From: a virus
Taxonomy: Duplodnaviria > Heunggongvirae > Uroviricota > Caudoviricetes
IMG/VR virus record: IMGVR_UViG_2713896773_000002
Coordinates: 1 to 13,367 of that record
Length of the DNA: 13,367 nt
Strand: one strand, 5' to 3'
The position numbers were made by a program, and so were the translations under genes. A model generated the notes under the pieces. The model had not been told where the DNA came from. It was given only the letters and a program-made list of their open reading frames with translations, and did no database searches. This document shows, in pieces, positions 1-13,367 of this stretch. Positions within the stretch are counted from its first letter, which is position 1; the number at the start of each line of letters is the position of its first letter.

Positions 1-755
1 ATCAGGAACGGCGACTGACCGCCAGCCAGCTGCGTGGCGATATCGGTGAATTGCGCCGGAAGCGTGCGCATTGCTGCGCTGTACTGACCAACGGAGATTC
101 CAGCGCGCCGGGCAGCAGCTTCCTGCCGGGATAGCGCCTCTGGTAGTACGTCAGCGACACCAGAGAGGCGCTCACGCGTCTGGTTAAGGATTGTGTTGAA
201 GTGCTCGAACTGAGCACCGTTAATGCGCCCAGCTTCGAAATGTTCCACCAGCTGTGCGTGCTGTTCATCCAACGAATTGAACGCGCGGATAGTCGGGTCG
301 ATGGATCCAAGAAGGTTCTTTAACGCTGCGGACTGCTTTTCTGCCGCCTGGGTAGCGGCTAATTCAGCCTGAGCGCGCGCCGCGGCTTCTCCGGTGTCGG
401 TCAGCTTGAGGCGGGTGTCATCCAGGATTTTGTTGTATGCCTGAAAGGTATCGGTATCCAGGAAACCTTTGGCCTGGAATTTCCGCAGCGATTCTTGCTG
501 CTCATCCAGGCGGTTTAAGGCCTTGGTAACCGGGTCGATATTCTCCAGCAGCCCTTTGAGCGCGTTCTGCTGCTCCTTGAGTCCTTCGCTGCCTTGCTTC
601 GCAGATTCAGCGCCAGCGCGAAACACGCTATTCAGATCATCTGCTTTATCTACAGCACCGGCCGCCGCCTGGCCGAGTTTATCCAGTTCGTTGCTGGCTG
701 TTTTCAGGTCAGAAACATCGGCCCGCAAAGTAATCGAGGCGATCTGGTCTGTCAT
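1..755 (-). CDS. tail tape measure protein, N-terminal part (partial; continues beyond left edge of window)
   Basis: ATG at 755..753 overlaps the TAA of the upstream chaperone ORF (TAATG). I translated the minus strand from 755 down to about 241 by hand with no stop (MTDQIASITLRADVSDLKTASNELDKLGQAAAG...), coiled-coil-like Ala/Gln/Leu-rich composition, and position immediately after G/GT chaperones. Not in the ORF track because it has no stop inside the window. Confidence 0.7.
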   Translation of the reverse strand, partial: MTDQIASITLRADVSDLKTASNELDKLGQAAAGAVDKADDLNSVFRAGAESAKQGSEGLKEQQNALKGLLENIDPVTKALNRLDEQQESLRKFQAKGFLDTDTFQAYNKILDDTRLKLTDTGEAAARAQAELAATQAAEKQSAALKNLLGSIDPTIRAFNSLDEQHAQLVEHFEAGRINGAQFEHFNTILNQTRERLSGVADVLPEALSRQEAAARRAGISVGQYSAAMRTLPAQFTDIATQLAGGQSPFL

Positions 756-1398
756 TATTTCGTCTCCTTATGCATTACCTTGAGAGCCTCGCTTTCCATA
801 ATTTGAAGGTCAGCCATGCAGGCCGCCGCATCCTCAACCCCGTGTAACTCGAACATCCAGGGGAGAACGTTGTAATCAAGGCCGGTCGCCCCGCTCGCGC
901 CGACGCGCCACTGGGTTGCCAGGGCAGAGAAGATGGTGAAAGACTTCCACACAGAGGGCAGGATACCCACCTCTTCCTCCACGTCCTCAGGCGTCAAACC
1001 AAAAGCGGCTAACTCCGCGAGAGTCGGTCCCGGCGTGTACAACGCTGCGGCGACCTGCCTTAGTTTTTTTCGCGGATACCCATCAGCTCTTTGGTGTAGG
1101 CCAGACCGATGCTGTCGAACGCGCGCGGGTAGTTCTGAAGAAGGACAATAACGTTGTCGCGGGTGAACTCGTCAGGTAGTGCCCACCCCTCGACAATTTC
1201 CATGAGGTAGTCGGCCTGCGGCTCGATAGCAGCCTTTTTACCTTCAGCCGACTTTTGCAGCTTTTCATCCATAGAGCGCAGCTCTTCCAGTGTCTTGTGG
1301 CGGAAGGTAAAGGTCAGCTTGCCGTCTTCAGCACCAGCGCGCGGGATGCTGGCGGTAACGGAGAAGGTCGGGTTCGGGATCAGGGAGAATTTGGTCAT
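755..1398 (-). CDS. tail assembly chaperone G-T fusion produced by programmed -1 ribosomal frameshift (predicted)
   Basis: The -1 frame relative to G is open from the slippery site at 1070..1063 down to the TAA at 757..755, which overlaps the tape measure ATG. The ORF-track entry 755..1042 starts at a TTG and has no independent start signal. Confidence 0.55.
1060..1398 (-). CDS. tail assembly chaperone (lambda gpG-like)
   Basis: 112-aa ORF with ATG at 1398..1396 and RBS AAGGAA 5 nt upstream; sits between the major tail gene region and the tape measure gene; ends ...REKN-TAA directly on a run of seven A (minus strand). Confidence 0.65.
   Translation of the reverse strand: MTKFSLIPNPTFSVTASIPRAGAEDGKLTFTFRHKTLEELRSMDEKLQKSAEGKKAAIEPQADYLMEIVEGWALPDEFTRDNVIVLLQNYPRAFDSIGLAYTKELMGIREKN
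1063..1070 (-). other. slippery sequence for -1 frameshift (minus strand G AAA AAA C; heptamer A_AAA_AAC in G frame)
   Basis: Seven consecutive T on the plus strand at 1064..1070, i.e. AAAAAAA on the coding strand, as the last sense codons of G (GAA AAA AAC TAA). Confidence 0.55.
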
Positions 1399-1410
1399 TT
1401 CGGTTCCTTA

Positions 1411-1436
1411 GAAAAACGAAACCCGCCGTAGCGGGT
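1411..1436 (-). terminator. intrinsic terminator after the KilA-N gene
   Basis: Minus strand reads ACCCGC-TACG-GCGGGT followed by TTCGTTTTTC (stem 1421..1426 / 1431..1436; T-tract is the complement of 1411..1420). Confidence 0.55.
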
Positions 1437-1437
1437 A

Positions 1438-1968
1438 TTAGTTAATGCCGGGCAGATACATCTGGACTTCGTCGGCGACGCGATCCCGGGCTGCATGTAA
1501 TAGCTGCTTGCGACCACCAACACCCCACTTGGCCATTTGGCTGGCACACTGGCTAATTGCCTTGGTTTCAGTGTTGATGATGTGGTCGATTTTGTTCAGG
1601 CGGGACATGGCACTGATACCAAGACGCACCACTGTTCTAAATACTTCGTACACTTCAATCTCAAACTCTGGCTTTATCCAGGCGGCATAGCGGATTGCCA
1701 GAAGTTCAATGCCCCATGCACCACTTTGATCACCGCCTTTTATAACCTTAAGTGGTTGATTTTGTTCCGAAGCACTTTTTAGTGCTTTGGATTTTAGCGC
1801 TTTAACGAAGCGTTTGATCTGCGCGCTACGCAGGAAGACGCTGGGCCTTTGTGACTCAGTAGCCTCTCCGTTAGCTACCGCTGCCGCATGAAGATCGTTA
1901 AGACTGTACCGGCCTTCGTCATCAACGCGGACGGAGACCCCATTCACTGAGACGGTTGGGTGATTCAT
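1438..1968 (-). CDS. KilA-N domain protein (moron inserted in tail gene cluster)
   Basis: 176-aa ORF, ATG at 1968..1966. N-terminal half (VNGVSVRVDDEGRYSLNDLHAAA ... GAWGIELLAIRYAAWIKPEFEIEVYEVF) fits the KilA-N/APSES-like pattern as I recall it. Flanked by hairpin terminators on both sides. Confidence 0.6.
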   Translation of the reverse strand: MNHPTVSVNGVSVRVDDEGRYSLNDLHAAAVANGEATESQRPSVFLRSAQIKRFVKALKSKALKSASEQNQPLKVIKGGDQSGAWGIELLAIRYAAWIKPEFEIEVYEVFRTVVRLGISAMSRLNKIDHIINTETKAISQCASQMAKWGVGGRKQLLHAARDRVADEVQMYLPGIN

Positions 1969-2151
1969 GGTGTGTACCTTTTAAAAAGCGAACCTGTTCA
2001 CACAGAAAAGCCGCCCCAAGAGGCCCACCGGCACTAACGGCAGTTCTCAGGAACGCTTTCTGAAAGGTTCTTGGTTAGAGAGCGCGTGTGAAGGCGCAGT
2101 TTGAAAAGATGGGTAATGCGAATACAGAAAATTCGCCAGCGGTACTCATTG

Positions 2152-2176
2152 CGAAATAAAGCCCGGCGAACCGGGC
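2152..2176 (-). terminator. intrinsic terminator after the major tail protein gene
   Basis: Minus strand reads GCCCGG-TTCG-CCGGGC followed by TTTATTTCGC (stem 2161..2166 / 2171..2176), starting 9 nt after the TAA of the 2185..3117 ORF. Confidence 0.7.
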
Positions 2177-2184
2177 CTGATTGG

Positions 2185-3117
2185 TTAGCTGACAGTAACG
2201 GTGCATGCCGCCGACGTTAGGGTCTTGCCTGCGGCGTCAGTGACTTCGCAGGTATAAACGCCAGCATCACCGGATGAGACAGACGAAATGTTGAACGTCG
2301 AGGCGGTTTTGCCCGGAATTGCGGAGCTTCCTTTCTTCCACACGTAGGTGTAAGGGGCTGAGCCGCCTTGCATAACGACGGCTAAATCGAGCGCATCTCC
2401 AACACTAACTGCTTTGGTTGATGGCAGATCAGTCAGGAACGCCAGCGGCGTAACGGATGAATCGGCGATCGGGTAAATCTGCATATCCGATTCGAAGTTC
2501 ATGCGCGCTTCGTTGCTTTCCACGGCGTTGATTTCGGTCTTAGGCACCTTCTGGAAAGACACTTTGGCAGAGTAATAACGGTCCGCTTTGCCGCGCGGGT
2601 TATGGAACCACACAGCAGTGGTGTCGCTGGATTCGTCAAGTTCACTCAGACGCTTGTAAATTGCCAGCAGCGGATCGTGCGCGAAGGTGTAGACCTGCAC
2701 CACGGCGTTTTTGAAGGTCGGGATGGTACGGGCCTTATCGTCTTCAAGGAACTGCACGCTGATGGTCTGCTGGTCACCACCCTCTGTGGAGAGGGTCATC
2801 ACCTGCGGCATCGTGATCCACGTGTCGATTTTACGCAGCGTGCCCGCGCCAGTGCCTGCCGGGAATTTGGTGGTGTCAGAGGTATCGAACGAATCCAGCA
2901 CGATTTTGGTACCGGCTACGGATTTAACGCGCAGCACCATATTATCGAGTTTTAGCCAGCCGGAGCTCACCTGCACTACGTCGCCCGCCAGGATGCCAGC
3001 GGCAGATGCAACAGTCAGTTCGCATTCAGTAGCGTTAGAGGCAGCGGTAAAGGTGATGGGAGCCTGATAGGCCTTGGCCACGTTAACACGCGAGCCGTTA
3101 GGGATTGCGAATGCCAT
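2185..3117 (-). CDS. major tail (tube) protein with C-terminal Ig-like domain
   Basis: 310-aa ORF, ATG at 3117..3115 with RBS AGGAG 6 nt upstream; located between tail terminator-like gene and chaperones G/GT; C-terminal ~80 aa (…YTYVWKKGSS…GVYTCEVTDAAGK…TVTVS) looks like an Ig-like fold. Confidence 0.6.
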   Translation of the reverse strand: MAFAIPNGSRVNVAKAYQAPITFTAASNATECELTVASAAGILAGDVVQVSSGWLKLDNMVLRVKSVAGTKIVLDSFDTSDTTKFPAGTGAGTLRKIDTWITMPQVMTLSTEGGDQQTISVQFLEDDKARTIPTFKNAVVQVYTFAHDPLLAIYKRLSELDESSDTTAVWFHNPRGKADRYYSAKVSFQKVPKTEINAVESNEARMNFESDMQIYPIADSSVTPLAFLTDLPSTKAVSVGDALDLAVVMQGGSAPYTYVWKKGSSAIPGKTASTFNISSVSSGDAGVYTCEVTDAAGKTLTSAACTVTVS

Positions 3118-3140
3118 AGCACTCTCCTGAATTTAGGTAA

Positions 3141-3163
3141 TAAAAAACCCGCCATCTGGCGGG
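3141..3163 (-). terminator. intrinsic terminator-like hairpin between tail terminator gene and major tail gene
   Basis: Minus strand reads CCCGCC-AGAT-GGCGGG followed by TTTTTTATTA (stem 3148..3153 / 3158..3163), immediately after the TGA at 3166..3164. Confidence 0.5.
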
Positions 3164-3613
3164 TCAGTAGTCAGCGCGGTACTGCATGCTGACGGGAATG
3201 GTGTAGGTTATGGAGCCACTGGACCCGTTGGACGCCGAGGTTGGCCGGTCCTGGATGGGTTGTCTCACCTGCGGCGGCCCATTGATATAAACAGTCAGGT
3301 CACCATCCACCAGCGCAAGCCCTTCAGGAAATGCATCAGCGACAGATTTAGCCAGCCCTCTGGCCTGCGTCACGCCGCTGCCTGCTGGCGCAATGATGTT
3401 GAGCTGCAGGATGCCCTGATAGGTTCGCAATTGACCTTCCAGGTCTTGCCCCACCGTCTGTGCCGGCAGAACATAAACACGCCCGTATGGTGAGCTATCC
3501 GGGGGAGTAAACGGTATGTTCGGCCAGGCTACGGGCAGCCCAAGCGATAAGCAGATAACCGCAATGCGGCTCTCCAGTAGTTCAGCAATTCGCATTGACT
3601 GGTCACTGGCCAT
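3164..3613 (-). CDS. putative tail terminator / tail completion protein (gpU-like position; possibly DUF4128-type)
   Basis: 149-aa ORF with ATG at 3613..3611, directly upstream of the major tail gene; contains a WPNIPFTPP motif that I recall from tail-terminator-like families. Family assignment is from memory. Confidence 0.4.
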   Translation of the reverse strand: MASDQSMRIAELLESRIAVICLSLGLPVAWPNIPFTPPDSSPYGRVYVLPAQTVGQDLEGQLRTYQGILQLNIIAPAGSGVTQARGLAKSVADAFPEGLALVDGDLTVYINGPPQVRQPIQDRPTSASNGSSGSITYTIPVSMQYRADY

Positions 3614-4202
3614 TGCGCACCTCGCTCATTGCCTCACGGAACAACTGCGCGGCATCCAGCGCAGTGATGCCCACCATGCCGCCGGGTGCCTGGCCGGAAT
3701 GCCCGTTCTCCAGTGCTGCCGCATATGGCAGATTATTGGTGAAGAAAATCGAGCTGACCTGCCCTACCCGGAACACCTCGAGCACTGCCAGACCGCGGGA
3801 GTTGGAACCCTGGCCGGAAGCGTCGGGGGTGTCGTTGGATTGGCTTGGCTGGCTGTCAAAGCCCACATACCAGTTGTTTTTAAACCGCCCGCCGACATAG
3901 CCCTCAGGCTTTTTGATGTCCATCGAGTCGTTGACGCGCAGGCCGCGCTTAAGTCGTCCTGATTTGGTCAGATTAGCCGGGTCATCACGCAGGGTCGCGT
4001 TATGCTCCCGCACCGCAGTGTTGTACGCCGTCGCGGTCTGGTTGACCTGCCAGATATCCGGTTGGCCCACCGGGGACATCTCAACCAGTTGAGCGAGGAT
4101 TTTAATACCCGTCCGGCGCACCACCTCGTCCATCTCCTGCTTCGAGCCATCCACGAACAGCTGAATGGCAGCCAGGAACGGCTGATTAACAGACCCCACC
4201 AT
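3603..4202 (-). CDS. putative neck / tail completion protein
   Basis: 199-aa ORF, ATG at 4202..4200, tightly packed between head-tail joining and tail terminator genes; call is by synteny only. Confidence 0.35.
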   Translation of the reverse strand: MVGSVNQPFLAAIQLFVDGSKQEMDEVVRRTGIKILAQLVEMSPVGQPDIWQVNQTATAYNTAVREHNATLRDDPANLTKSGRLKRGLRVNDSMDIKKPEGYVGGRFKNNWYVGFDSQPSQSNDTPDASGQGSNSRGLAVLEVFRVGQVSSIFFTNNLPYAAALENGHSGQAPGGMVGITALDAAQLFREAMSEVRNGQ

Positions 4203-4204
4203 AG

Positions 4205-4558
4205 TTACGCCCTCAGCTGGATGTTGTAGGAGATCAGCACATCGGCAGGCTTAACCGGATTCGGCTGTACCACGCGCCACTTTTTGCTGTCGATTTCGAT
4301 GCGGTCATCGATGCGCACTTCCGTCTCGAAAGTGGCCGCCAGCTTCTTGTCGCCGGTGGCGATCAGGGAACCGTCGATTTCGCGGGAGGAGTATTCGGTG
4401 ATAACACCGGTTACGGTCGCGGTAATGGCCGGGGTGGTGACCTCTTTGCCGAACTGGTCACGGATGGTGCCGCCGCCGCGGGTAAGCTGATATGCCTTCC
4501 CGTTCTCGGTCAGCAGTCGGGTCGCGGTCGCGCGCATGCGGCGATAGTCGATTGCCAT
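4205..4558 (-). CDS. putative head-tail joining protein
   Basis: 117-aa ORF, ATG at 4558..4556; size and position typical of head-tail adaptor/joining proteins. Confidence 0.4.
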   Translation of the reverse strand: MAIDYRRMRATATRLLTENGKAYQLTRGGGTIRDQFGKEVTTPAITATVTGVITEYSSREIDGSLIATGDKKLAATFETEVRIDDRIEIDSKKWRVVQPNPVKPADVLISYNIQLRA

Positions 4559-4559
4559 G

Positions 4560-5042
4560 CTACCCCCTTTCGACCCGGACCTGGTTGCCGCCCACTACAA
4601 GCCCGCGCAGTGCGGAATAGAACCATGGGAATGACGGAGAAGCTTTATTCGTTCCCGGCTCATACTGGACTGTTACCGCACCCTCGACGCGCTCCATCGT
4701 AACCGCCCCACCGCCAGCGACCGACGGGGTGAGGTCAATCTCCTGCGATTCGATGGCCAGGCGACATTGAGCATCAATCAGGCGCTGTGGAATCGCATCA
4801 TTCGACAGGTCAACACCATCGAAGCGCACGCCGGAACGCGGCCAGGATAGAGGCTGTGATGCGCTGGAACGCTGACCGCGCCAGGCCTTCCCTTCCAGAA
4901 AGTCCATTGCCTGCATCAGCATCTGGCTGCATTCGCCATCTTCAGCAGGGATGGTGTATCCGCGCCCCGCAGCGAACGCGCGCAGATCACCAACGCTGGC
5001 ATAGCTGTTGAAGTCAGACGAATGGGGATCGGCATTAATCAT
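4560..5042 (-). CDS. putative head-tail connector / head completion protein
   Basis: 160-aa ORF, ATG at 5042..5040 with RBS AGAGGAG 8 nt upstream; call is by position in the module. Confidence 0.35.
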   Translation of the reverse strand: MINADPHSSDFNSYASVGDLRAFAAGRGYTIPAEDGECSQMLMQAMDFLEGKAWRGQRSSASQPLSWPRSGVRFDGVDLSNDAIPQRLIDAQCRLAIESQEIDLTPSVAGGGAVTMERVEGAVTVQYEPGTNKASPSFPWFYSALRGLVVGGNQVRVERG

Positions 5043-5055
5043 CTCAGAGCTCCTC

Positions 5056-5367
5056 TCAGGCTTCGAAAAGCTTCTGCTTTAACGCATATCCCATCAACGC
5101 CCACAACTCGCTTTCGGCGTTCTCAATAGCAATTTTCTCGCCAATTTCAGCGTTGTCGTTAGCGGAGGAAACTGAGCACGACGGATTCCCTGTTACTGCG
5201 AATCCGTTTTGAGTGGTGATGACCGCCCAGCGAAGCACCTGCCCGGTGACGGATACGTGCTTCACGATCTCGGCATGCTTAATATTCGCCTTCAACTCGC
5301 CCAGCGTAACGCGCGGCGCGTTCAAGCCTTTGGCCTGAATTTCCTGCTCAATATCTTTATCGCTCAC
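5056..5367 (-). CDS. hypothetical phage protein (head/connector region), GTG start
   Basis: 103-aa ORF whose start codon is GTG at 5367..5365, with a strong RBS GGAGGA 6 nt upstream. Confidence 0.45.
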   Translation of the reverse strand: MSDKDIEQEIQAKGLNAPRVTLGELKANIKHAEIVKHVSVTGQVLRWAVITTQNGFAVTGNPSCSVSSANDNAEIGEKIAIENAESELWALMGYALKQKLFEA

Positions 5368-5369
5368 AG

Positions 5370-5570
5370 TTACTCCTCCAGTCGCCAGTCCAGCGCCAGC
5401 CAGTTATCGACTTCGTCAGGGTGAACCTCAGCGCTCAGCGGACCGCCGGGGAACTCCGGGGTATCTCGCATCATAGCCACCAGCTCAATACCTGTTTGTT
5501 CAGCGCCGTTCTGCGCGGCAAGCTTTTCAGCCTCACGCTGCGCGCTCTGCTCTTTGGTTAATCCGGCCAT
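5370..5570 (-). CDS. small acidic hypothetical protein (66 aa) downstream of capsid gene
   Basis: ORF track gives 5370..5660, but that start overlaps the capsid gene by 52 nt. An internal ATG at 5570..5568 has a perfect AGGAGG 4 nt upstream and lies just past the capsid terminator, so I take 5570 as the real start. Confidence 0.45.
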   Translation of the reverse strand: MAGLTKEQSAQREAEKLAAQNGAEQTGIELVAMMRDTPEFPGGPLSAEVHPDEVDNWLALDWRLEE

Positions 5571-5580
5571 TGGGCCTCCT

Positions 5581-5604
5581 GAAAACAAAGGGGCCGAAGC
5601 CCCC
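5581..5604 (-). terminator. intrinsic terminator after the major capsid gene
   Basis: Minus strand reads GGGGC-TTCG-GCCCC followed by TTTGTTTTC (stem 5590..5594 / 5599..5603), immediately after the capsid TAA at 5611..5609; the T-tract overlaps the RBS of the next gene. Confidence 0.65.
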
Positions 5605-5608
5605 TGGG

Positions 5609-6748
5609 TTAACCCATGATGATGGCGGAATGACGTGGCGCCACAGCAGCCACACCCCATGCCAGGCCCACTTCATAACGCACCTGACGGTACTGGCGGT
5701 ACAGCGCCACCTGGAAGGTGATGCCAGATACCGGGTCGGTCACATTCATGACGTCATCAGCAGTATCGCCACCTTCAGGCATCGCCGGGGTACGGCTGGC
5801 CAGCAGGAATGCCCCGCGGTCAAACGCCATGTTCGGTACAAATTCGCTCAACACAGTGACATCAGCCTGGTCTGCCAGATCCTGACGGAGGCCCGGCGCG
5901 CTAATAGTGATAGTGGAAGACGTAGCCGCAACGACCAGATACTGATTGTCATCACCGGCGAACTTCACCGCAGTACCTGCAGCAATACCGCCGGTGCCAG
6001 CAGAGATAGCGATGATGATATCGCCCTCTTTCTTCGCGCCATTGACCTTATAGCCAGCAGCAGCGCTTTTCGCGGTACGCTTGATGCTGAAGGATTCGTG
6101 GAGGTTGAAGCCCATGATGCGACCGATAACACCTTCACGCAGCAGTTGGTCGGTTCCCGCTTCGTTCGCTTTGAAGAGTACAGCCTGTTTACCACGGATG
6201 GATGCCATCGCTTCGCCACCCAGCACCATACGCAAATCAGTAGTCGGCGCACCGTTATCGGTCAGGATTTGACGCGCCAACGCAGCATCAGTCAGATCGT
6301 CTTTGATGCTGAACGGGGTATTCTTTGGCGCGCCAACAGCGCGGGAGGAGTTGAGGTACAGCGCAGCGAGATCCGCATCCACTTCGTTCGCCAGCGCACG
6401 GAAAGCCTGCTTGAACTGGTCAGCCAGGATGGTGTTGTAGGTACCAGCCGGGCCCAGAGCCAATTGCTCTTCACCATTCCATTTCACCGGGGCCATTTTG
6501 GATTTGGTGATTTTGACATCCACACCACCGATGGTCTGGTCGCCAGAATTAGGCGCTGAAGGTCCAGGGACAATATCTTCAGTGGTGGCTGCAGGTGCGA
6601 CTGGCGCACGTACGGTCTGGTCTTTTGCAGCAGCATCCGCTTTCGCGTCACGCGCCACCGCAGGAATAAAACCAGTTTGCTCGCGGGACACTACGTACAG
6701 CGCGGTATAGATGGTCGGGATCAGACCAGTAAGGGTATTGCCTGCCAT
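5609..6748 (-). CDS. major capsid protein (possibly P22 coat-like family)
   Basis: 379-aa ORF, ATG at 6748..6746 with RBS AAGGAG; directly downstream of a scaffold-like gene and followed by a strong terminator. Family call is from recalled similarity of the N-terminal region. Confidence 0.65.
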   Translation of the reverse strand: MAGNTLTGLIPTIYTALYVVSREQTGFIPAVARDAKADAAAKDQTVRAPVAPAATTEDIVPGPSAPNSGDQTIGGVDVKITKSKMAPVKWNGEEQLALGPAGTYNTILADQFKQAFRALANEVDADLAALYLNSSRAVGAPKNTPFSIKDDLTDAALARQILTDNGAPTTDLRMVLGGEAMASIRGKQAVLFKANEAGTDQLLREGVIGRIMGFNLHESFSIKRTAKSAAAGYKVNGAKKEGDIIIAISAGTGGIAAGTAVKFAGDDNQYLVVAATSSTITISAPGLRQDLADQADVTVLSEFVPNMAFDRGAFLLASRTPAMPEGGDTADDVMNVTDPVSGITFQVALYRQYRQVRYEVGLAWGVAAVAPRHSAIIMG

Positions 6749-6765
6749 TTATGGCTCCTTTCGAT

Positions 6766-7518
6766 TTAATCGACGATGCTGACGCCGTCTTTCAGCGCTG
6801 CTTGCTTGCCAGCGTTATCCAGGGAATCAAACGCATCGCGTTTCATGGTTTTTTGCCCGGCCTGGTGCTGCGACTGGTGAGAACCGCCGCCGCTGTTACC
6901 GGACGCTTTGAGGATGTAATCTTTCTGCGGATGCGACTCGACCAGAGACTCCAGGGCCTCATCAAAGCTGGCTAACTCGCCTGGCTTGGTGCGAGAGAAC
7001 ACCTTGTTGCCCTGCCCGTCGTACGCCACGACTTTGCCGTCTTCGATTTTGAAGTTCTGACCGAAGTGGGAACGCACGAACTCAGCCGGGATCGCCATCT
7101 TCTCTGAAATGAATTTGGAGCCACCGAAGCGCCCGCCGATCATCTCGTCGTAGAGCTGGCTTTCGAGCTGTTTGGTCTTGCCGTTCGCTTCATCCAGCTG
7201 CTGCTGGAATACCTTGGTAATCTCAGCCTTAACCTGGTCAACAGCGCCAGCGTCGATCAGTTTTTTCTGGTCGATTTTGGTCATCATCTCCAGGGCTTCG
7301 AGCGCCTTGGTCGGATCGGTGATGCCAGAGAATTTCGCGAGACTGGCTTCCGCCGCCTCCTTCGCTTCACGGTGAGTTTTAGCTTCACCATTCAGGGAGG
7401 TGATTTTGGTCATCGCTGCGGCTGCGTCGAACGGGATTTCTTTGCCATCATCATGGATGTACACAGGCATACCGTTTTCAACGACCACATTTCCGTTAGC
7501 ATCAAGTTTCAGTTTCAT
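6766..7518 (-). CDS. putative capsid scaffolding protein
   Basis: 250-aa ORF, ATG at 7518..7516 with RBS GGAG; charged, Lys/Glu/Ala-rich and coiled-coil-like; lies between the MuF-like gene and the capsid gene. Confidence 0.5.
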   Translation of the reverse strand: MKLKLDANGNVVVENGMPVYIHDDGKEIPFDAAAAMTKITSLNGEAKTHREAKEAAEASLAKFSGITDPTKALEALEMMTKIDQKKLIDAGAVDQVKAEITKVFQQQLDEANGKTKQLESQLYDEMIGGRFGGSKFISEKMAIPAEFVRSHFGQNFKIEDGKVVAYDGQGNKVFSRTKPGELASFDEALESLVESHPQKDYILKASGNSGGGSHQSQHQAGQKTMKRDAFDSLDNAGKQAALKDGVSIVD

Positions 7519-7599
7519 TGTTTTTGCTCCAGCCTTCCGGCCATTGGTAATAGGTCATCCGACCCGGTCACCGCGTCGCATCCGCTCAGCGGCAGGCAT

Positions 7600-7624
7600 A
7601 AAAAAGGCCACCCGAAGGCAGCCT
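7600..7624 (-). terminator. intrinsic terminator-like hairpin upstream of scaffold gene
   Basis: Minus strand reads GGCTGCC-TTCG-GGTGGCC followed by TTTTTTAT. The stem has two G-U wobble pairs that would be C-A mismatches on the plus strand, so it is only stable in the minus-strand transcript. Confidence 0.45.
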
Positions 7625-7625
7625 G

Positions 7626-7835
7626 TTAGATAAATTCGACGGTTATTACGCCGCGCAGTTTGCGGGTATAGACTTCATCGCGCTTTCGCTTATGGACCCG
7701 AATGGGGTATGGGTAGAAGCATGCTATTCCTCGCTTAACATCCGCCCATACGCAGCGCTTGACCTCGTTGCCGTTAACGAACACTCGGCGCTTACCGCGG
7801 CCATCGCCCACATGGTGAAAATCGTCATCTCGCAT
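7626..7835 (-). CDS. small basic hypothetical protein (69 aa)
   Basis: ORF track gives 7626..7853 starting at TTG; an in-frame ATG at 7835..7833 is preceded by GGGGGGTGG. It starts 24 nt after the DUF2829-like gene and is followed by a terminator. Lys/Arg-rich with two His and two Cys. Confidence 0.4.
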   Translation of the reverse strand: MRDDDFHHVGDGRGKRRVFVNGNEVKRCVWADVKRGIACFYPYPIRVHKRKRDEVYTRKLRGVITVEFI

Positions 7836-7858
7836 AGACCACCCCCCAAGCAACTGGT

Positions 7859-8323
7859 TTAGAGAATTTGCCAGTCATCAGCCAAGACGTCGGTTTGGCT
7901 TGGTGCCCAAGGCACGCGAGCGCCATTTGGGTATGGCATAGCACCATTGCCCGGCACAGGATAAATTAAACGAATGTACGGCAGGTCCACAGATGGCGAC
8001 TGCTGGACCAGCTCAAGCCACAGGCCCTTGCCGTTCCAGCCTGCGCGGGTGACACGCTTGCCTGATTTCAGGGCTTCGACAGCCAGTCCGAAGCTAAGCC
8101 CCGCCACTGGTCGGTAGGCTTTGTCGAACACATCTTTCGGACTCCAGCTCACATACCCGTTGAAGCGATCGGTGTTTGGCTTTCCGCCATCCAGATACTC
8201 GACGAGATAACCTTCATCACTTCCGTTTTCGTCACTTGGTAACTCCCAACCACGAAAGTCGTTATATGCCAGACGGGTCATCGGGTAAGCATTGATGAGC
8301 TTCACGCCAATATGTTGAGTCAT
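7859..8323 (-). CDS. DUF2829-like (Tad2-like, anti-Thoeris sponge family) domain protein with N-terminal extension
   Basis: 154-aa ORF, ATG at 8323..8321. C-terminal half (…EALKSGKRVTRAGWNGKGLWLEL…VPWAPSQTDVLADDWQIL) matches the motifs I recall for DUF2829. This is a recollection, not a search result. Confidence 0.5.
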   Translation of the reverse strand: MTQHIGVKLINAYPMTRLAYNDFRGWELPSDENGSDEGYLVEYLDGGKPNTDRFNGYVSWSPKDVFDKAYRPVAGLSFGLAVEALKSGKRVTRAGWNGKGLWLELVQQSPSVDLPYIRLIYPVPGNGAMPYPNGARVPWAPSQTDVLADDWQIL

Positions 8324-8343
8324 TGTTTTATTACCTTATTCAG

Positions 8344-9447
8344 TTATTCAAATGCCGACGCATCCACGCGGCGCAATTCGTCCAGGGTAAGGAACTCCCC
8401 GGCATCATTGAACATCTCCGGCACGGTGATTTTGCCGTCACGCAGCATCTGCGCGCGAGTAACGCCCAGCACCTGCTCCTGCCGCGCGTAAGGCTGCCTC
8501 GCAAGCCATTCGGCATAGCTGGTATGCGCTGGCACCTGTCCGTCCATTGAAGCGCGCGTGGCGTTGCTCAGCTCGCCTGAGGATATTTGCATTTCCTCCC
8601 ACGATTTAGTGATCAGGATTTCGCAGGAGCGGCAGCAAAAGTGGATTTTGCCGGGGCCGCGCAGATACGGAATTGCATGGCCCAGCGGCTTTCCATCGAG
8701 CGAGTAGAGTTTGCGGTCGCGGATGATGCACCACTGGCTGGTGTGGGTGTCCAGAGTCGAAGACCACTGTTTGGCCTTCACGATATCGCTATTGGCTTGT
8801 GCAAACTCCTGGCGCGCCGTTGCTGCCATATGGTTCACCGCGGTGCGGGCAACAACAGCAAGGTCACGACGTGAGGCATTGATAACCCCGTCTTGGCGGT
8901 TAAGTTGCGGCGTGCCGGCGACGCGCTTCACGATCTGCTCGACGGTTTCACCCTGAAGAAATCCGGTACGCACCGCACTGGTGATTTTATCCAGCCGATC
9001 GGATTCAAGCTTTTGGCCCCACTCTTTCAGCAATCTCCCCTGAAAAGGTTGCGCCACCGCAGAGGTGTAGACCTGCTCTGGGGCAATGCTTTGCAGCGGG
9101 ACGTGTTTCAGCACCTGCCGGGGTATAAGGCTGCTGAACAGGTCCATCTGATACCCGGTCTCATAATCCGTGTAACGTGCCAGCTCACGCGCCAGGGAAG
9201 AATTAACCGGTTCATAGGCCTGCTGATTCAGGTCGCGCACGCCAGCCAGCAGCGAAGCTAGGCGGCGGGCGCTGTAGGTGTCGGCACGCTTGCCGTCCAG
9301 CAGCACCAGCAGTTTTGCAGCAAGGTCAGCATCCAGCCTGTTCAGCAACGACACCATGCGCCGGGCGACGCCAGTACCGTAGCGGTTCACATAAAGCCCG
9401 TGCGCTATGGTTTCGTCCTGAAGCCTGTCATTGACGGAACGGGCCAT
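8344..9447 (-). CDS. phage head morphogenesis protein (SPP1 gp7 / Mu F-like minor head protein)
   Basis: 367-aa ORF, ATG at 9447..9445 with RBS GAGGTG. Contains …LDGKPLGHAIPYLRGPGKIHFCCRSCE…, which I recognise as typical of MuF-family proteins. Confidence 0.75.
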   Translation of the reverse strand: MARSVNDRLQDETIAHGLYVNRYGTGVARRMVSLLNRLDADLAAKLLVLLDGKRADTYSARRLASLLAGVRDLNQQAYEPVNSSLARELARYTDYETGYQMDLFSSLIPRQVLKHVPLQSIAPEQVYTSAVAQPFQGRLLKEWGQKLESDRLDKITSAVRTGFLQGETVEQIVKRVAGTPQLNRQDGVINASRRDLAVVARTAVNHMAATARQEFAQANSDIVKAKQWSSTLDTHTSQWCIIRDRKLYSLDGKPLGHAIPYLRGPGKIHFCCRSCEILITKSWEEMQISSGELSNATRASMDGQVPAHTSYAEWLARQPYARQEQVLGVTRAQMLRDGKITVPEMFNDAGEFLTLDELRRVDASAFE

Positions 9448-9459
9448 ATCACACCTCGC

Positions 9460-9975
9460 CTATCGTTCTGGTATTAGCATCGTCACAGCGCGATATGCGG
9501 CGCTTGCTGGCATTCTTGAATAGCCGACACCTTTGCATCTTCCGCATTCTTTCTCAACAACTCTCCCCCACAGCTCTGTTTTTGATATATCAACCGCACG
9601 GCCTGTACCGTGGCAATCTCTGCACCTTGCTCCCGGCGTCGCGGCACTACGGCAATAATCCGCATAAGCGAATGTTGCGAGCACTTGCAGTACCTTTGCC
9701 TTAGTATTTCCTTCAAGCTTTGCCACACCACGGTATTTCCCCGATACCTTGTGTGCAAATTGCATCAGATAGTTGATAGCCTTTTGTTTGTCGTTCTGGC
9801 TGAGTTCATGCTTACCGCAGAATGCAGCCATTCCGAATCCGGCTTGTGATTGCGCCATCCCCATAGCAGCCATCACATCAGTACCGGAAAGAGAGTCAGA
9901 AGCCGTAGCCCGTGGTGAGTCGCTCATCATCGGGCTTTTTGGCGAATGAAATTTAGCTACGCTTTCGAGTCTCAT
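9460..9975 (-). CDS. Q: antitermination protein Q (lambda Q-like), apparently truncated at the 3' end
   Basis: 171-aa ORF that reads like lambda Q over its first ~169 residues, including the zinc-finger region CRDCHGTGR…CGRCKG. It ends …TMLIPER-TAG where I recall lambda Q continuing for ~40 more residues. Start overlaps the ninH stop (ATGA). Confidence 0.7.
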   Translation of the reverse strand: MRLESVAKFHSPKSPMMSDSPRATASDSLSGTDVMAAMGMAQSQAGFGMAAFCGKHELSQNDKQKAINYLMQFAHKVSGKYRGVAKLEGNTKAKVLQVLATFAYADYCRSAATPGARCRDCHGTGRAVDISKTELWGRVVEKECGRCKGVGYSRMPASAAYRAVTMLIPER

Positions 9976-10160
9976 CGTCTTCCCCTCTTGCCCTGTTTGA
10001 CCATCAGGACGCCGTTAACTATTACATGACGCTCGCCTTTGCTGTCTCGGTTGTACTTGAGCACTGTTCCTCTTGCGCAGGAAAGCACCCTTGCCACTTC
10101 GGTCTGATTGCCTCGTGTCTGGATAAGAAGCTCTGGTATCGTTTGAATTGTGGCGTTCAT
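9972..10160 (-). CDS. ninH: NinH-like small DNA-binding protein
   Basis: 62-aa ORF with a …GNQTEVAR…SRGTV…KY…IVN.VLMV… pattern resembling lambda NinH; lies immediately upstream of Q, with start overlapping the rusA stop. Confidence 0.7.
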   Translation of the reverse strand: MNATIQTIPELLIQTRGNQTEVARVLSCARGTVLKYNRDSKGERHVIVNGVLMVKQGKRGRR

Positions 10161-10522
10161 ACGTTCTCCAGTTCGGTGATTTTTATTCCAAGCCTTCCGC
10201 CTGGTACTTTCACACCACGAATTACGCGAATGTCATCGAATTGCTCGTCGTCTTCCGCAAATCCGGCGTGGATAAGGGAGTCGAGTAAACCTTTCAGGAT
10301 GTTATCGAGGTCGCGGCGGCGGGAGTCTGGAACGTCTGCGATGACTTTGATGCGGAGTCGTGATTTGGTGAAAATATCTAACTTGAGTTGGTGGATGATT
10401 TGCTGAACGTCTTTTCGGTATTTCTGGCCTTTATCGCTGATGTAGTATTGGCTTCCCCGTCTTCGCCAGTAGGTATTCACCGACGGCGGGTATGGAAGCA
10501 CAAACTGATATTCGTTCACCAT
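10157..10522 (-). CDS. rusA: Holliday junction resolvase RusA
   Basis: 121-aa ORF; …[13 protein letters not shown]… and …[32 protein letters not shown]… match the RusA family pattern as I recall it. Confidence 0.8.
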
Positions 10523-10592
10523 CGATTCCAGTAAGGTTGATTTGGTCGGAAGCGGTTATCTTCTTTGCATTCACCGCACCGATAACATCGCA

Positions 10593-10928
10593 TCATACTT
10601 CCCGATCTCCCCATCTCGCTTTCCACTCCAGAGCCAGTCTCGCTTCGTCTGACCACTTAACGCCACGCTCTGTACCGAATGCCTGTATAAGCTCTAATAG
10701 CTCCGCAAATTCGCTTACACGCATCCTGCTGGTTGACTGTCCTATTACCACAAAGCCATTCCCGGCAAGGTTAGGAACAACGTCCTGCTGCTTTAATGCT
10801 GCGGTAAACACACACTTCCAGCTTTCTGCATCCAGCCAGCGACCATGCCATTCAACCTGACGAGAGACGTCACCTAAGCAGGCCCATATCGTCTGCCACG
10901 CGCAGCAGGTGCATTTGATGCTGTGCAA
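10593..10928 (-). pseudogene. ninB: ninB (orf) homolog lacking its 5' end; only TTG start available
   Basis: From [27 protein letters not shown]… onward it is near-identical to lambda NinB as I recall it, but the ~45-50 N-terminal residues are absent. An in-frame TGA lies at 10943..10941, the only start is TTG at 10928, and the 5' end overlaps the helicase 3' end by 55 nt. Confidence 0.55.
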
Positions 10929-12241
10929 ATCTGTCTGGCTTCATCCTGGTCACATGCAACAAAGTGTCCGTTACAGAACCGCTGGTAAACCGTACCAAGC
11001 GAGCCAAAACGGTTTTTCGTCACAATGATTTCAGCAAATGGCGCGGCGCTACTGTTCTCGTCATATACAGCTTCCCGATAGAGCATGATGATTGAGTCTG
11101 CGTCCTGTTCAATGCTTCCTGAATCACGCAAATCTGCGTTTGTCGGGCGTTTGTTTGGTCGCTTCTCAACATCGCGCGAAAGCTGACTCAGGGAGATAAC
11201 AGGCGTTTTCAGGTCTTTCGCCATCGCCTTCAGGCTTCCTGAGATATGAGCAATTGCGAGGTCGTTGCGGTCTGCTTTCGGCTTCTCAATCAGGCCAAGA
11301 TAATCCGCCATGATGAGTGACAGGTTTGGATTTTCCTGTTTGTGCCGTTCTGCGATTGAGCGTATTTCTTCGACCGATAACCGCGAGGCATCGACTACCC
11401 ATACATCCAAATCTGCAAGCTGACTCATGCCGTTAGCAACGCGCGCCCAGCCCTCGTCATCCATCGATGCAGGATTTCGCAGCACGCTAACCGACATCCT
11501 CCCGGCGTTGGCAATGCTTCGCTCTGCAATCTGCAATGCGCTCATTTCCATTGAGAAAATCAATACTCCGCGCCGGACGTCAGAACCAGGAATAACGCGG
11601 CTTGCAACGCCTTCGGCAATCTTCAGCGCCAGTTCGGTTTTCCCCATACCAGGACGAGCAGCGATTATCACCAGGTCTTCCGCGTTCATCCCTCCGGTGA
11701 TGGCATCAAGTTCTTCGATTCCGGTCTTCAGGGTATCTGACTCTTCTCCGTTCCTCAGACGCCTGTCAAGCGTGTCAGTGTAGTCAGTAATGATTTCCCC
11801 TAACCGTACAGGTTTAACCTCGTCACGGGGCTTTCTGATGGCTGAGAGACGCTTTACAAGCTCGTCCATCGCCTGACTCGATGTATCGATGGTTCCGCTC
11901 TGAATTGGTTCACGCATTTCATCCATGATTTCCAGCACCAGACGGCGGTGATAGTTATCCGCGACCATTCCGGCATATCCCTTCAGGTTTGCGGCACTCG
12001 GGCAGTTCTTACTGGTCATCAGGATTGACGTGAAATGCTCCTCTCCGCACGCCTCGGCAACCATCAGCGCGTCGATTAGGTTTCTGTTTCTCGCCTGCTT
12101 GCGGATAACCTCGAAGGCTTTCCGGTAGAGCGGAATTGAAAACGCTTCCGGCTCCAGCGTTGCCAGAACGTCACTGGCAGTTGGTGTTAATCCACCAATC
12201 AGCAGGCCACCGATAACGCTCGCTTCGATATCCTGTCTCAT
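10874..12241 (-). CDS. replicative DNA helicase (DnaB family; phage P-gene functional analogue)
   Basis: 455-aa ORF with Walker A (…[13 protein letters not shown]…) and typical DnaB-like C-terminal features; start overlaps the stop of the O-like gene (ATGA). Confidence 0.85.
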
Positions 12242-13185
12242 GCTATCCCCCTGTCTGCAAACTTCCCTTCCCGTACTCCCGTTAACGAATCTTCCCTCAG
12301 CAGGTAATCAAAATCTGCCGTCCAGCCAGTGTCGTTGTCTCCGAAGTAAAACGGCTTGGCCTGATGTACAAACGCCCTGACATACGCTCTGAAACCGTCC
12401 ACGTTTGGCGTTTTCAGTTGCGGGATGATTTTCTTCAGGCGGCGTTTGCGTTTCTCGTTGACCGCAACAGCGTGTGGCAGTCTGTCACCGACTTCGGTGT
12501 TGTAGGCGTTCAGGAAGGATTCGTAGTCGATTCGTTCTGCCTTGCGACGTTCATGTTTAACCTGCCCATCGCCTCCCCCATTGGGGGGTAGGGGGGTATT
12601 ATTTATATTCTTGTTAATACCTTCTTGTTCATGATGTGCGGTTGTTTGTGCGGCTTCATGTGCGCTTTCATGTGCGGAATGTACGCTGAAAGCCGCGCCA
12701 TTACTGACTTCATCATGTGCGGCATCATGTGCGGTTGTTTGTGCGGCTTCATGTGCGGGTGAATTGTCCATTTTTTGAGCATATTCATGGTAATTTGTGA
12801 TGGTGATCACACGACCTTTTTGCTTCTCTCCATCAATGGTGATCATCCCCTCTTTCACAAAAACCTGAAGCATCCGCTCAACCTGATCACGGCTTGCCGG
12901 CTTGCCATGCCTGTCGCATAACTGAAGACCTAAATCAGCTGCTGTCACAACCAGTTGACCGGGTTGCAGATGCCATTCATGACCTTTGAAATTCGCTTTG
13001 TATGGCTTTCTGGCGGCATTCAGGAGAAGGTTTTCCCACAGGGTGCGAAGATAAACATCTTTCGCCCATGACTGTTTCAGAATGCTCCGGTACAACGGAA
13101 TGTAACCAGTTTTCTGGTTCTCCATCCTGTTGCTCCTGCGCTCGTGTGCGGCGCTGAAATCGTAGATTTTTGCTGTATTGCTCAT
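12238..13185 (-). CDS. replication initiation protein (lambda O-like) containing an internal iteron array
   Basis: 315-aa ORF, ATG at 13185..13183; N-terminus [10 protein letters not shown]… resembles lambda O (MTNTAKILNF…). The central linker is encoded by the repeated DNA iterons and it sits immediately upstream of the helicase. Confidence 0.7.
12634..12758. repeat. putative replication origin iterons: two clusters of four 8-mers (cATGTGCGG / tTGTGCGG) on a 12-bp period
   Basis: Copies start at 12634, 12646, 12658, 12670 and at 12715, 12727, 12739, 12751. An exact 31-nt direct repeat occurs at 12634..12664 and 12727..12757. AT-rich DNA flanks both sides (12598..12629 and 12761..12800) and a G/C inverted repeat CCCCCA-T-TGGGGG sits at 12575..12587. 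Confidence 0.6.
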
Positions 13186-13367
13186 AACTACCTGCCTTGA
13201 CGAAAGACCTTAAGAACATCGTTAAACTGACTTACGGATATGTCTTCTTTGAGCAGCTTTTCCAGAAATGCGTTTGGAATGAACGTATATCCCTCCTCTT
13301 TTGGTATCCTACTGGCATGTTCGATTATTACTACAACCAGTGGCTGGAGTCAGATAACAAAACCCCA

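Follow-up and report, generated by a model that had tools for sequence, protein, structure and literature searches.

The closest described systems are phage sponges for immune signals, first among them Tad2 of phage SPO1 (gp34.65; Yirmiya et al. 2023/2024), a protein of 89 amino acids. Four of five tested Tad2 homologues inhibited Thoeris (Yirmiya et al.). In SPO1 Tad2, the cyclic ADP-ribose signal gcADPR is contacted by W25, N26, I63, T65, D67, H71, W73, S76, T78 and D79, with W25, N26, W73, S76, T78 and D79 providing most of the van der Waals and phosphate interactions (10.1101/2023.05.01.538930). Tad2 proteins are characterised as homotetramers whose pockets lie between the protomers. Tad2 homologues were also reported to bind His-ADPR, N7-cADPR, cUMP/cCMP and cGAMP, some of them via a second pocket (10.1101/2025.08.24.671296). 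Acb4 (PF13876; 10.1101/2024.12.30.630793) and Sequestin (PF21825; 10.1101/2025.07.12.664507) are further sponge families, and 'RyR Tad', gp68 of Pectobacterium phage CB1, was described in a preprint (Fedorova et al. 2026, 10.64898/2026.06.04.730250). The N-terminal domain of RyR Tad is inactive on its own against type I Thoeris and crystallised as a domain-swapped dimer (10.64898/2026.06.04.730250), which is described as forming a five-stranded sheet. Here, we report on a gene for a Tad2-like protein of 154 amino acids and on a gene of 69 codons beside it, both located in the head operon of a lambdoid prophage segment in IMG/VR virus record IMGVR_UViG_2713896773_000002 (positions 1 to 13,367; this whole stretch of 13,367 nucleotides is called the window in the following).

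Most likely, the two are independent small accessory genes in a variable slot between a MuF-like gene and the scaffold gene: the 154-amino-acid product would be an immune-signal sponge of the Tad2 family, and the 69-codon gene the usual resident of the slot. The initial annotation had read them as a two-gene cargo closed by its own terminator. With regard to the parts it was correct, as the MuF-like gene, the open reading frames of 154 and 69 (Lys/Arg-rich) amino acids, the minus-strand hairpin and the scaffold gene are all found where it had placed them. In the order of transcription, the features are:

8344..9447, minus strand: MuF-like head morphogenesis gene, 367 amino acids (PF04233, expectation value (E) 3.8e-8; phrog_241, E 3e-156)
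8324..8343, minus strand: spacer of 20 nucleotides from the MuF stop to the start of the DUF2829 gene (ctgaataaggtaataaaaca; read from the sequence)
7859..8323, minus strand: two-domain sponge-family gene, 154 amino acids (phrog_872 over its full length, E 2.1e-60)
8105..8323, minus strand: N-terminal RyR-Tad-type domain, codons 1-73 (by homology to the N-terminal domain of Pectobacterium phage CB1 gp68)
7862..8095, minus strand: Tad2-like (DUF2829) domain, codons 77-154 (PF11195)
7626..7835, minus strand: gene of a basic, predicted all-beta protein, 69 amino acids (phrog_3540, E 1.6e-33)
7597..7624, minus strand: intrinsic-terminator-like hairpin (7624..7605) with T-run, right border of the slot
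7519..7604, minus strand: leader of 86 nucleotides from the terminator to the scaffold ATG (from the alignment of relatives)
6766..7518, minus strand: scaffold gene (DUF6651 / phrog_206, head scaffolding protein), right flank of the slot

The slot extends from the stop codon of MuF, its left border, to the terminator hairpin and the leader in a lambdoid head operon of the HK639-like type, and it was found with different contents. Phage HK639 carries a different, hydrophobic open reading frame of 38 amino acids. The 69-codon gene alone, 3-4 nucleotides after MuF, occupies the slot in E. coli ET729, Salmonella and Leclercia, the DUF2829 gene alone is present in L017, L105, L116 and Pseudomonas phiAH14a, and the window shares the state with both genes with 11 E. 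coli genomes and a few viral contigs. Among the 80 viral contigs with the closest homologues of the 69-amino-acid protein, 71 show MuF directly followed by the 69-codon gene and no DUF2829, while the DUF2829 gene lies between them in 9. Viewed from the other side, of 160 loci that encode a two-domain DUF2829 homologue, no more than 3 have a detectable 69-amino-acid homologue. Distant homologues of the small protein are encoded either in the midst of head-tail joining genes or in the stretch from the lysis to the terminase genes, and these too are without DUF2829. Slot contents and counts together describe the DUF2829 gene as a single-gene insertion of ~510 nucleotides beside a resident gene. 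Since it is missing from HK639 and many related prophages, it is, as had been proposed, an accessory insertion in the head operon and not a structural component. The 69-codon gene, as far as the gene order of its relatives tells, is the usual slot resident and not a partner of the 154-codon gene. A foreign base composition of the insert was considered and rejected; guanine-plus-cytosine fractions of 0.47-0.59 across the insert and 0.52-0.62 in the surroundings show no sharp anomaly. The MuF-scaffold slot of HK639-like prophages represents a defined exchange site in which to look for new accessory genes. In HK639 (L001), the 38-amino-acid frame (MPQIMVGLVSIALGLAAIVISSRSIYEMWRFMREQKNK) is unannotated and lies at 4785-4901, just before the annotated terminator.

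Judged from sequence and predicted structure, the C-terminal half of the 154-amino-acid protein is a Tad2/DUF2829 domain, in agreement with the initial annotation. PF11195 ('Tad2-like') matches residues 77-154 with E 4.6e-20 and 72.4 bits (cut-off 25), covering profile positions 2-73 of 73. A sequence search of the PDB retrieved SPO1 Tad2 (8sme, E 5.4e-11) and ModTad2 (E 6.5e-10); HgmTad2/AcrIIA7 was matched as well. In the AlphaFold2 model (mean predicted local distance difference test score, pLDDT, 83.7), the predicted fold of the C-terminal domain agrees with the Tad2 fold, an N-terminal helix followed by an antiparallel sheet. The HMMER alignment shows the six main gcADPR contacts of SPO1 Tad2 kept as W96, N97, W139, S142, T144 and D145. 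The likeness to SPO1 Tad2 thus comprises domain family, fold and these contacts; unlike SPO1 Tad2, the window protein carries an added N-terminal domain, which accounts for the difference in length. PADLOC returned no match to defence-system proteins for any of four small proteins. The 154-codon gene would be another, fairly ordinary anti-defence gene of the Tad2 family with a core of divergent sub-type. Current understanding is not overturned by these results.

The right border of the slot is formed by the hairpin AGGCTGCC-TTCG-GGTGGCCT, followed by TTTTTTAT, with a folding energy of -12.3 kcal/mol. The terminator scan by itself is not above chance (2 found, 1.4 expected in shuffles). A hairpin is kept in all five aligned relatives whatever the slot contains, with a stem preserved despite sequence changes and energies of -11 to -14 kcal/mol, and the record of phage HK639 annotates it as a terminator. 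It is therefore not the cassette's own terminator, as had been assumed, but belongs to the slot. In lambdoid phages, the Q-modified polymerase reads through terminators of this kind. Leclercia (L013, ~4215-4300) has two tandem terminator hairpins after the 69-codon gene, which would be expected if cassettes recombine at the hairpin. The leader that follows hardly varies between the HK639, E. coli, Salmonella and Leclercia copies, whereas neighbouring coding DNA is only ~85% identical. An RNA element was considered here and rejected, because the leader matches no Rfam family and folds no better than shuffles (z -0.26). Possibly, the leader marks a border of recombination or controls translation of the scaffold gene.

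Within window positions 7300-8700, no sigma-70-like site was detected that could serve as a promoter for the cassette, and the spacer of 20 nucleotides leaves no room for a promoter of the DUF2829 gene's own. Extra genes between conserved late genes of lambdoid phages are known as morons, a concept from HK97 and HK022. The insertion in the window resembles them in being present or absent between conserved late genes and in having a terminator at its downstream border. It differs from them in lacking a detected promoter of its own and in sharing a terminator that is common to all states of the slot.

For the 69-codon gene, the list of open reading frames offers a version of 75 amino acids from a TTG at 7853; all homologues start at the ATG. 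Relative to the E. coli and Salmonella copies, the ratio of nonsynonymous to synonymous substitution rates (dN/dS) is 0.06-0.08 with synonymous sites near saturation, so that this is a real gene under strong purifying selection. In RefSeq genome annotation it is mostly left uncalled. The product has 17 Lys plus Arg residues, an isoelectric point of 10.1, and a predicted all-beta structure of moderate confidence (pLDDT 74.7). H7, D11, G14, R16, V20, N21, G22, G36 and P44 are invariant in the homologues and cysteines are not, which rules out a zinc site as well as the degenerate HNH-like motif suspected earlier (a beta-beta-alpha metal fold with conserved His-Asn-His). No Pfam, NCBIfam or PDB sequence match was obtained, and BFVD matches are uncharacterised small phage proteins only. 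As a low-confidence guess, it might be a small, late-expressed protein that binds nucleic acids or nucleotides.

These properties bear on the possibility that the 69-codon gene serves the head module as an accessory, either in head assembly or in association with DNA, and that the DUF2829 gene merely landed beside it. Its place directly behind MuF in most close relatives, the location of distant homologues always in late regions, the strongly basic product and the strong selection are in good agreement with such a role. On the other hand, HK639 has the 38-amino-acid frame instead, distant phages carry the gene in varying positions, and neither structural nor family matches point to a function. 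Its absence from L017, L105 and L116 shows that a head of this type can do without it. We consider a head-module role possible but somewhat doubtful.

Returning to the preferred reading of an accessory sponge gene, its working could be as follows. The DUF2829 domain is expected to oligomerise, presumably with the N-terminal domain as oligomerisation handle, and pockets between the subunits would bury TIR-made cyclic ADP-ribose signals (3'cADPR / gcADPR or a related nucleotide), so that a Thoeris-type effector would stay unactivated. Having no promoter of its own, the gene would be part of the late head transcript and would be expressed while capsid protein accumulates. According to published evidence, it is the major capsid protein that activates Thoeris cyclases (PMC12578639), and such late timing would fit this trigger. 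Ligand, oligomeric state and timing of expression are inferred here.

Several points weigh against this reading. Binding, oligomerisation and expression of the 154-amino-acid protein are deduced from sequence and a structure model. Four of the ten contacts of SPO1 Tad2 (I63, T65, D67 and H71) have no conserved counterpart, although they fall in a loop that is aligned with uncertainty, and the canonical 'KTADN' strand (beta-4) is swapped for 'MPYPNG' in the alignment with canonical members; the ligand is thus possibly another than 3'cADPR. The Tad2 homologue from a prophage of E. coli AIEC_UM149 (159 amino acids, IMG gene 2729517083) has two domains as well and is 60% identical (~85% in the first 100 residues), but its core is the canonical 'GYGFGEY ... 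KNSQN' type as in SPO1 Tad2, and the PYPNG core of the window protein is shorter. In favour of the sponge reading, the AIEC_UM149 protein is flagged in the homologue table of Yirmiya et al. with 'Yes' in the column where a Myroides homologue reads 'Tested, not active'; that 'Yes' means active is a reading of the column entries, not of its header. In addition, the antiterminator gene Q is truncated in the window, with 171 amino acids as compared to 207 in E. coli relatives and homology that stops near 9465. It abuts MuF (junction 9447-9475), and the match to the portal-MuF junction of the relatives begins near 9474. The lysis, terminase and portal genes which relatives carry between Q and MuF are missing, and the Q-MuF junction was absent elsewhere in the GTDB representative genomes and E. 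coli genomes searched. The window element may therefore be a deletion derivative or defective prophage, and normal late expression of this copy is doubtful.

The changed contacts suggest an alternative in which the protein is a sponge for another signal, with the PYPNG core retargeting the pocket from the 3'cADPR of type I Thoeris to His-ADPR, N7-cADPR, CBASS cyclic dinucleotides or Pycsar cUMP/cCMP. The ligand range reported for Tad2 homologues is consistent with this, and it is the adenine-side residues that differ in the window protein. Among the 120 best listed of 4928 homologues, the set from which the following core and length counts were taken, a PYPNG-type core is present in 69 and a canonical KTADN-like motif in 28. 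Furthermore, the centre of the Tad2 domain (residues ~104-138; alignment columns ~117-190) is hypervariable and mosaic with large indels, while the N-terminal domain and the termini are near-identical. One homologue (P0020) equals the window protein through the first ~100 residues and then continues with a canonical core. The alignment hence suggests that a segment which probably sets the specificity has been exchanged by recombination. Nevertheless, all six main gcADPR contacts are conserved, and we regard a retargeted pocket as unlikely.

A two-component cargo (e.g., a sponge together with its chaperone or regulator, or two proteins that enter the capsid via MuF) is highly improbable. The two genes are adjacent to each other and to MuF, on the same strand and 23 nucleotides apart, and this arrangement of both is seen again in 11 E. 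coli genomes and 9 viral contigs. The notion of a partner gene is nevertheless largely refuted by the co-occurrence counts given above, by the occurrence of each gene alone in the same slot, and by distant homologues of the small gene that occupy other late slots without DUF2829. The MuF-linked toxin or packaged cargo contemplated in the initial annotation fares no better, since the MuF-like protein has the MuF domain only (no C-terminal toxin or cargo domain among the Pfam and PHROG profile matches over 367 amino acids) and in distant phages both downstream genes also occur without an obligate link to MuF. An AcrIIA7-type inhibitor of Cas9 is barely plausible, in spite of phage records that label homologues 'anti-CRISPR protein' and of PDB matches to chains named AcrIIA7 or 'Inhibitor of Type II CRISPR-Cas system' (8kbi, E 8.3e-8; 9kzr, E 1.3e-6). 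These matches cover residues 76-111 only, what is shared is the DUF2829 fold, and the 8kbi sequence is also that of the HgmTad2 sponge. The Tad2 authors hold DUF2829 proteins to be anti-Thoeris and not anti-CRISPR, Cas9 binding never having been shown. Moreover, the CRISPR-Cas systems of Enterobacter, Citrobacter and E. coli are normally of type I and not of type II.

The region of ~70 residues ahead of the Tad2 domain had been regarded as an unusual extension. This could not be maintained, as all 120 best-listed homologues are ~150-230 amino acids long and aligned over nearly the whole query, gp49 of phage N4 among them, and about 100 proteins in the Tad2 homologue table of Yirmiya et al. carry the domain. 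The supplement of a 2025 preprint on sponge diversity holds no N-domain motif, so no tested homologue of the two-domain architecture can be traced there. Structure prediction, as had been proposed, gives five strands within residues 3-73 of the monomer model. The domain matches no Pfam or NCBIfam family and no PDB sequence, the PDB having been searched with a profile as well. However, it is homologous to residues 1-70 of CB1 gp68 (hhalign probability 95.9%, E 5.9e-9, 62 columns; BLASTP E 6e-6), and the extra region is thus a known though unnamed module. As in the window protein, this domain of RyR Tad stands ahead of a sponge domain, which in RyR Tad has an all-helical, ryanodine-receptor Repeat12-like fold and is not Tad2. 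The CB1 domain also lacks the YN..RGW and DGG..N motifs, both nearly invariant in the subfamily of the window protein. A derivation of the N-terminal domain from a duplicated, diverged Tad2 domain, considered on account of a similar motif order, was rejected after profile-profile comparison (151 N-terminal against 132 Tad2 domains, probability <=0.1%).

An exhaustive HMMER search found the N-terminal domain in 1483 representative clusters, as standalone proteins of 80-94 amino acids or in N-terminal or C-terminal position. In the best 150 of these 1483 representatives its partners are Tad2-like domains (50), PF21825 (37), PF13876 (20) and an Acb2/Tad1 hairpin (1). By these matches it appears as an unnamed module of ~70 amino acids fronting at least five sponge families, namely Tad2, Sequestin, Acb4, Acb2/Tad1 and RyR-Tad. 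It merits a family definition and could be used to search for sponge families beyond these. Some 25 positions of the domain show little or no variation, and many of these residues are aromatic or charged. This conservation, the standalone occurrence and the fusion to at least five unrelated sponge families prompt a more far-reaching reading. In it, the domain would be more than a dimerisation handle (binding a further signal, or shielding sponges from sponge-sensing defences, e.g., Panoptes), the exchange of KTADN for PYPNG would create a new ligand specificity, and the 69-amino-acid slot resident would be an undescribed anti-defence protein. As a whole, this reading is in our opinion quite unlikely.

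An anti-defence gene in a late operon had been thought unusual, and this expectation was not borne out either. Upstream neighbours at 149 non-redundant two-domain loci are often late genes (Rz 18, MuF 8, P22 portal 3), next to Acb4 (11) and Acb2/Tad1 (3); terminase, coat and some replication genes were also observed. Late-operon placement is common for the two-domain DUF2829 subfamily. The strongest association of the two-domain homologues is with Acb4: an Acb4-like gene is present at 51 of 160 loci, usually with an overlap of 4 nucleotides, within ~300 nucleotides, or fused, and Acb4 beside a Tad2 protein with the N-terminal domain is the commonest pairing found. The window has a second sponge-family gene of this kind:

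5056..5367, minus strand: Acb4-like gene (PF13876, E 6.2e-15), in a slot of its own behind the capsid gene

This gene is a precise insertion of 334 nucleotides between a small post-capsid gene (~5370-5570, minus strand) and the DnaT_2-type adaptor gene. HK639, L003 and L012 do not have it, and their homology to the window leaves out positions 5035-5368. Seven of the nine contigs with DUF2829 have it and none of the 71 without, a count that ignores shared descent. The Acb4-like gene is homologous to gp48 of phage N4, and gp49 next to it is a full-length two-domain homologue of the 154-amino-acid protein (43% identical). In N4, gp48 and gp49 abut at the end of a rightward cluster of replication genes (SSB, Sak4), beside the virion RNA polymerase gene ('anti-signalling hotspot'), whereas the sponge genes of the window occupy different slots of a lambdoid head operon, with ~2.5 kb between them. 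The window thus provides an example of sponge genes as single-gene cassettes in such an operon, a Tad2-type and an Acb4-type gene 2.5 kb apart, and both would be co-transcribed with the capsid gene, whose product is the known Thoeris trigger.

All genes of the window are on the minus strand. First in the order of transcription are the O-like, DnaB-like, NinB, RusA and NinH genes (replication and nin), which are followed by Q. The head-tail module has the order MuF-like, scaffold (DUF6651), P22-type coat, DnaT_2-type adaptor, tail terminator and tail tube, and is of the type of phage HK639 and many Enterobacteriaceae prophages, with a DNA identity of 84-97%. Two provirus contigs from one genome (L178 and L179; IMG/VR UViG 2713896773_000004 and _000023) are 100% identical to window positions 4629-8352 and 4629-8323, respectively. 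Both stop where the DUF2829 gene starts or a little upstream of that point, so that the automated provirus borders cut at the insertion. A gene with a KilA-N domain (window 1438-1968, minus strand) lies between the tail tube and tail assembly chaperone genes and is a probable further accessory insertion in the late operon.

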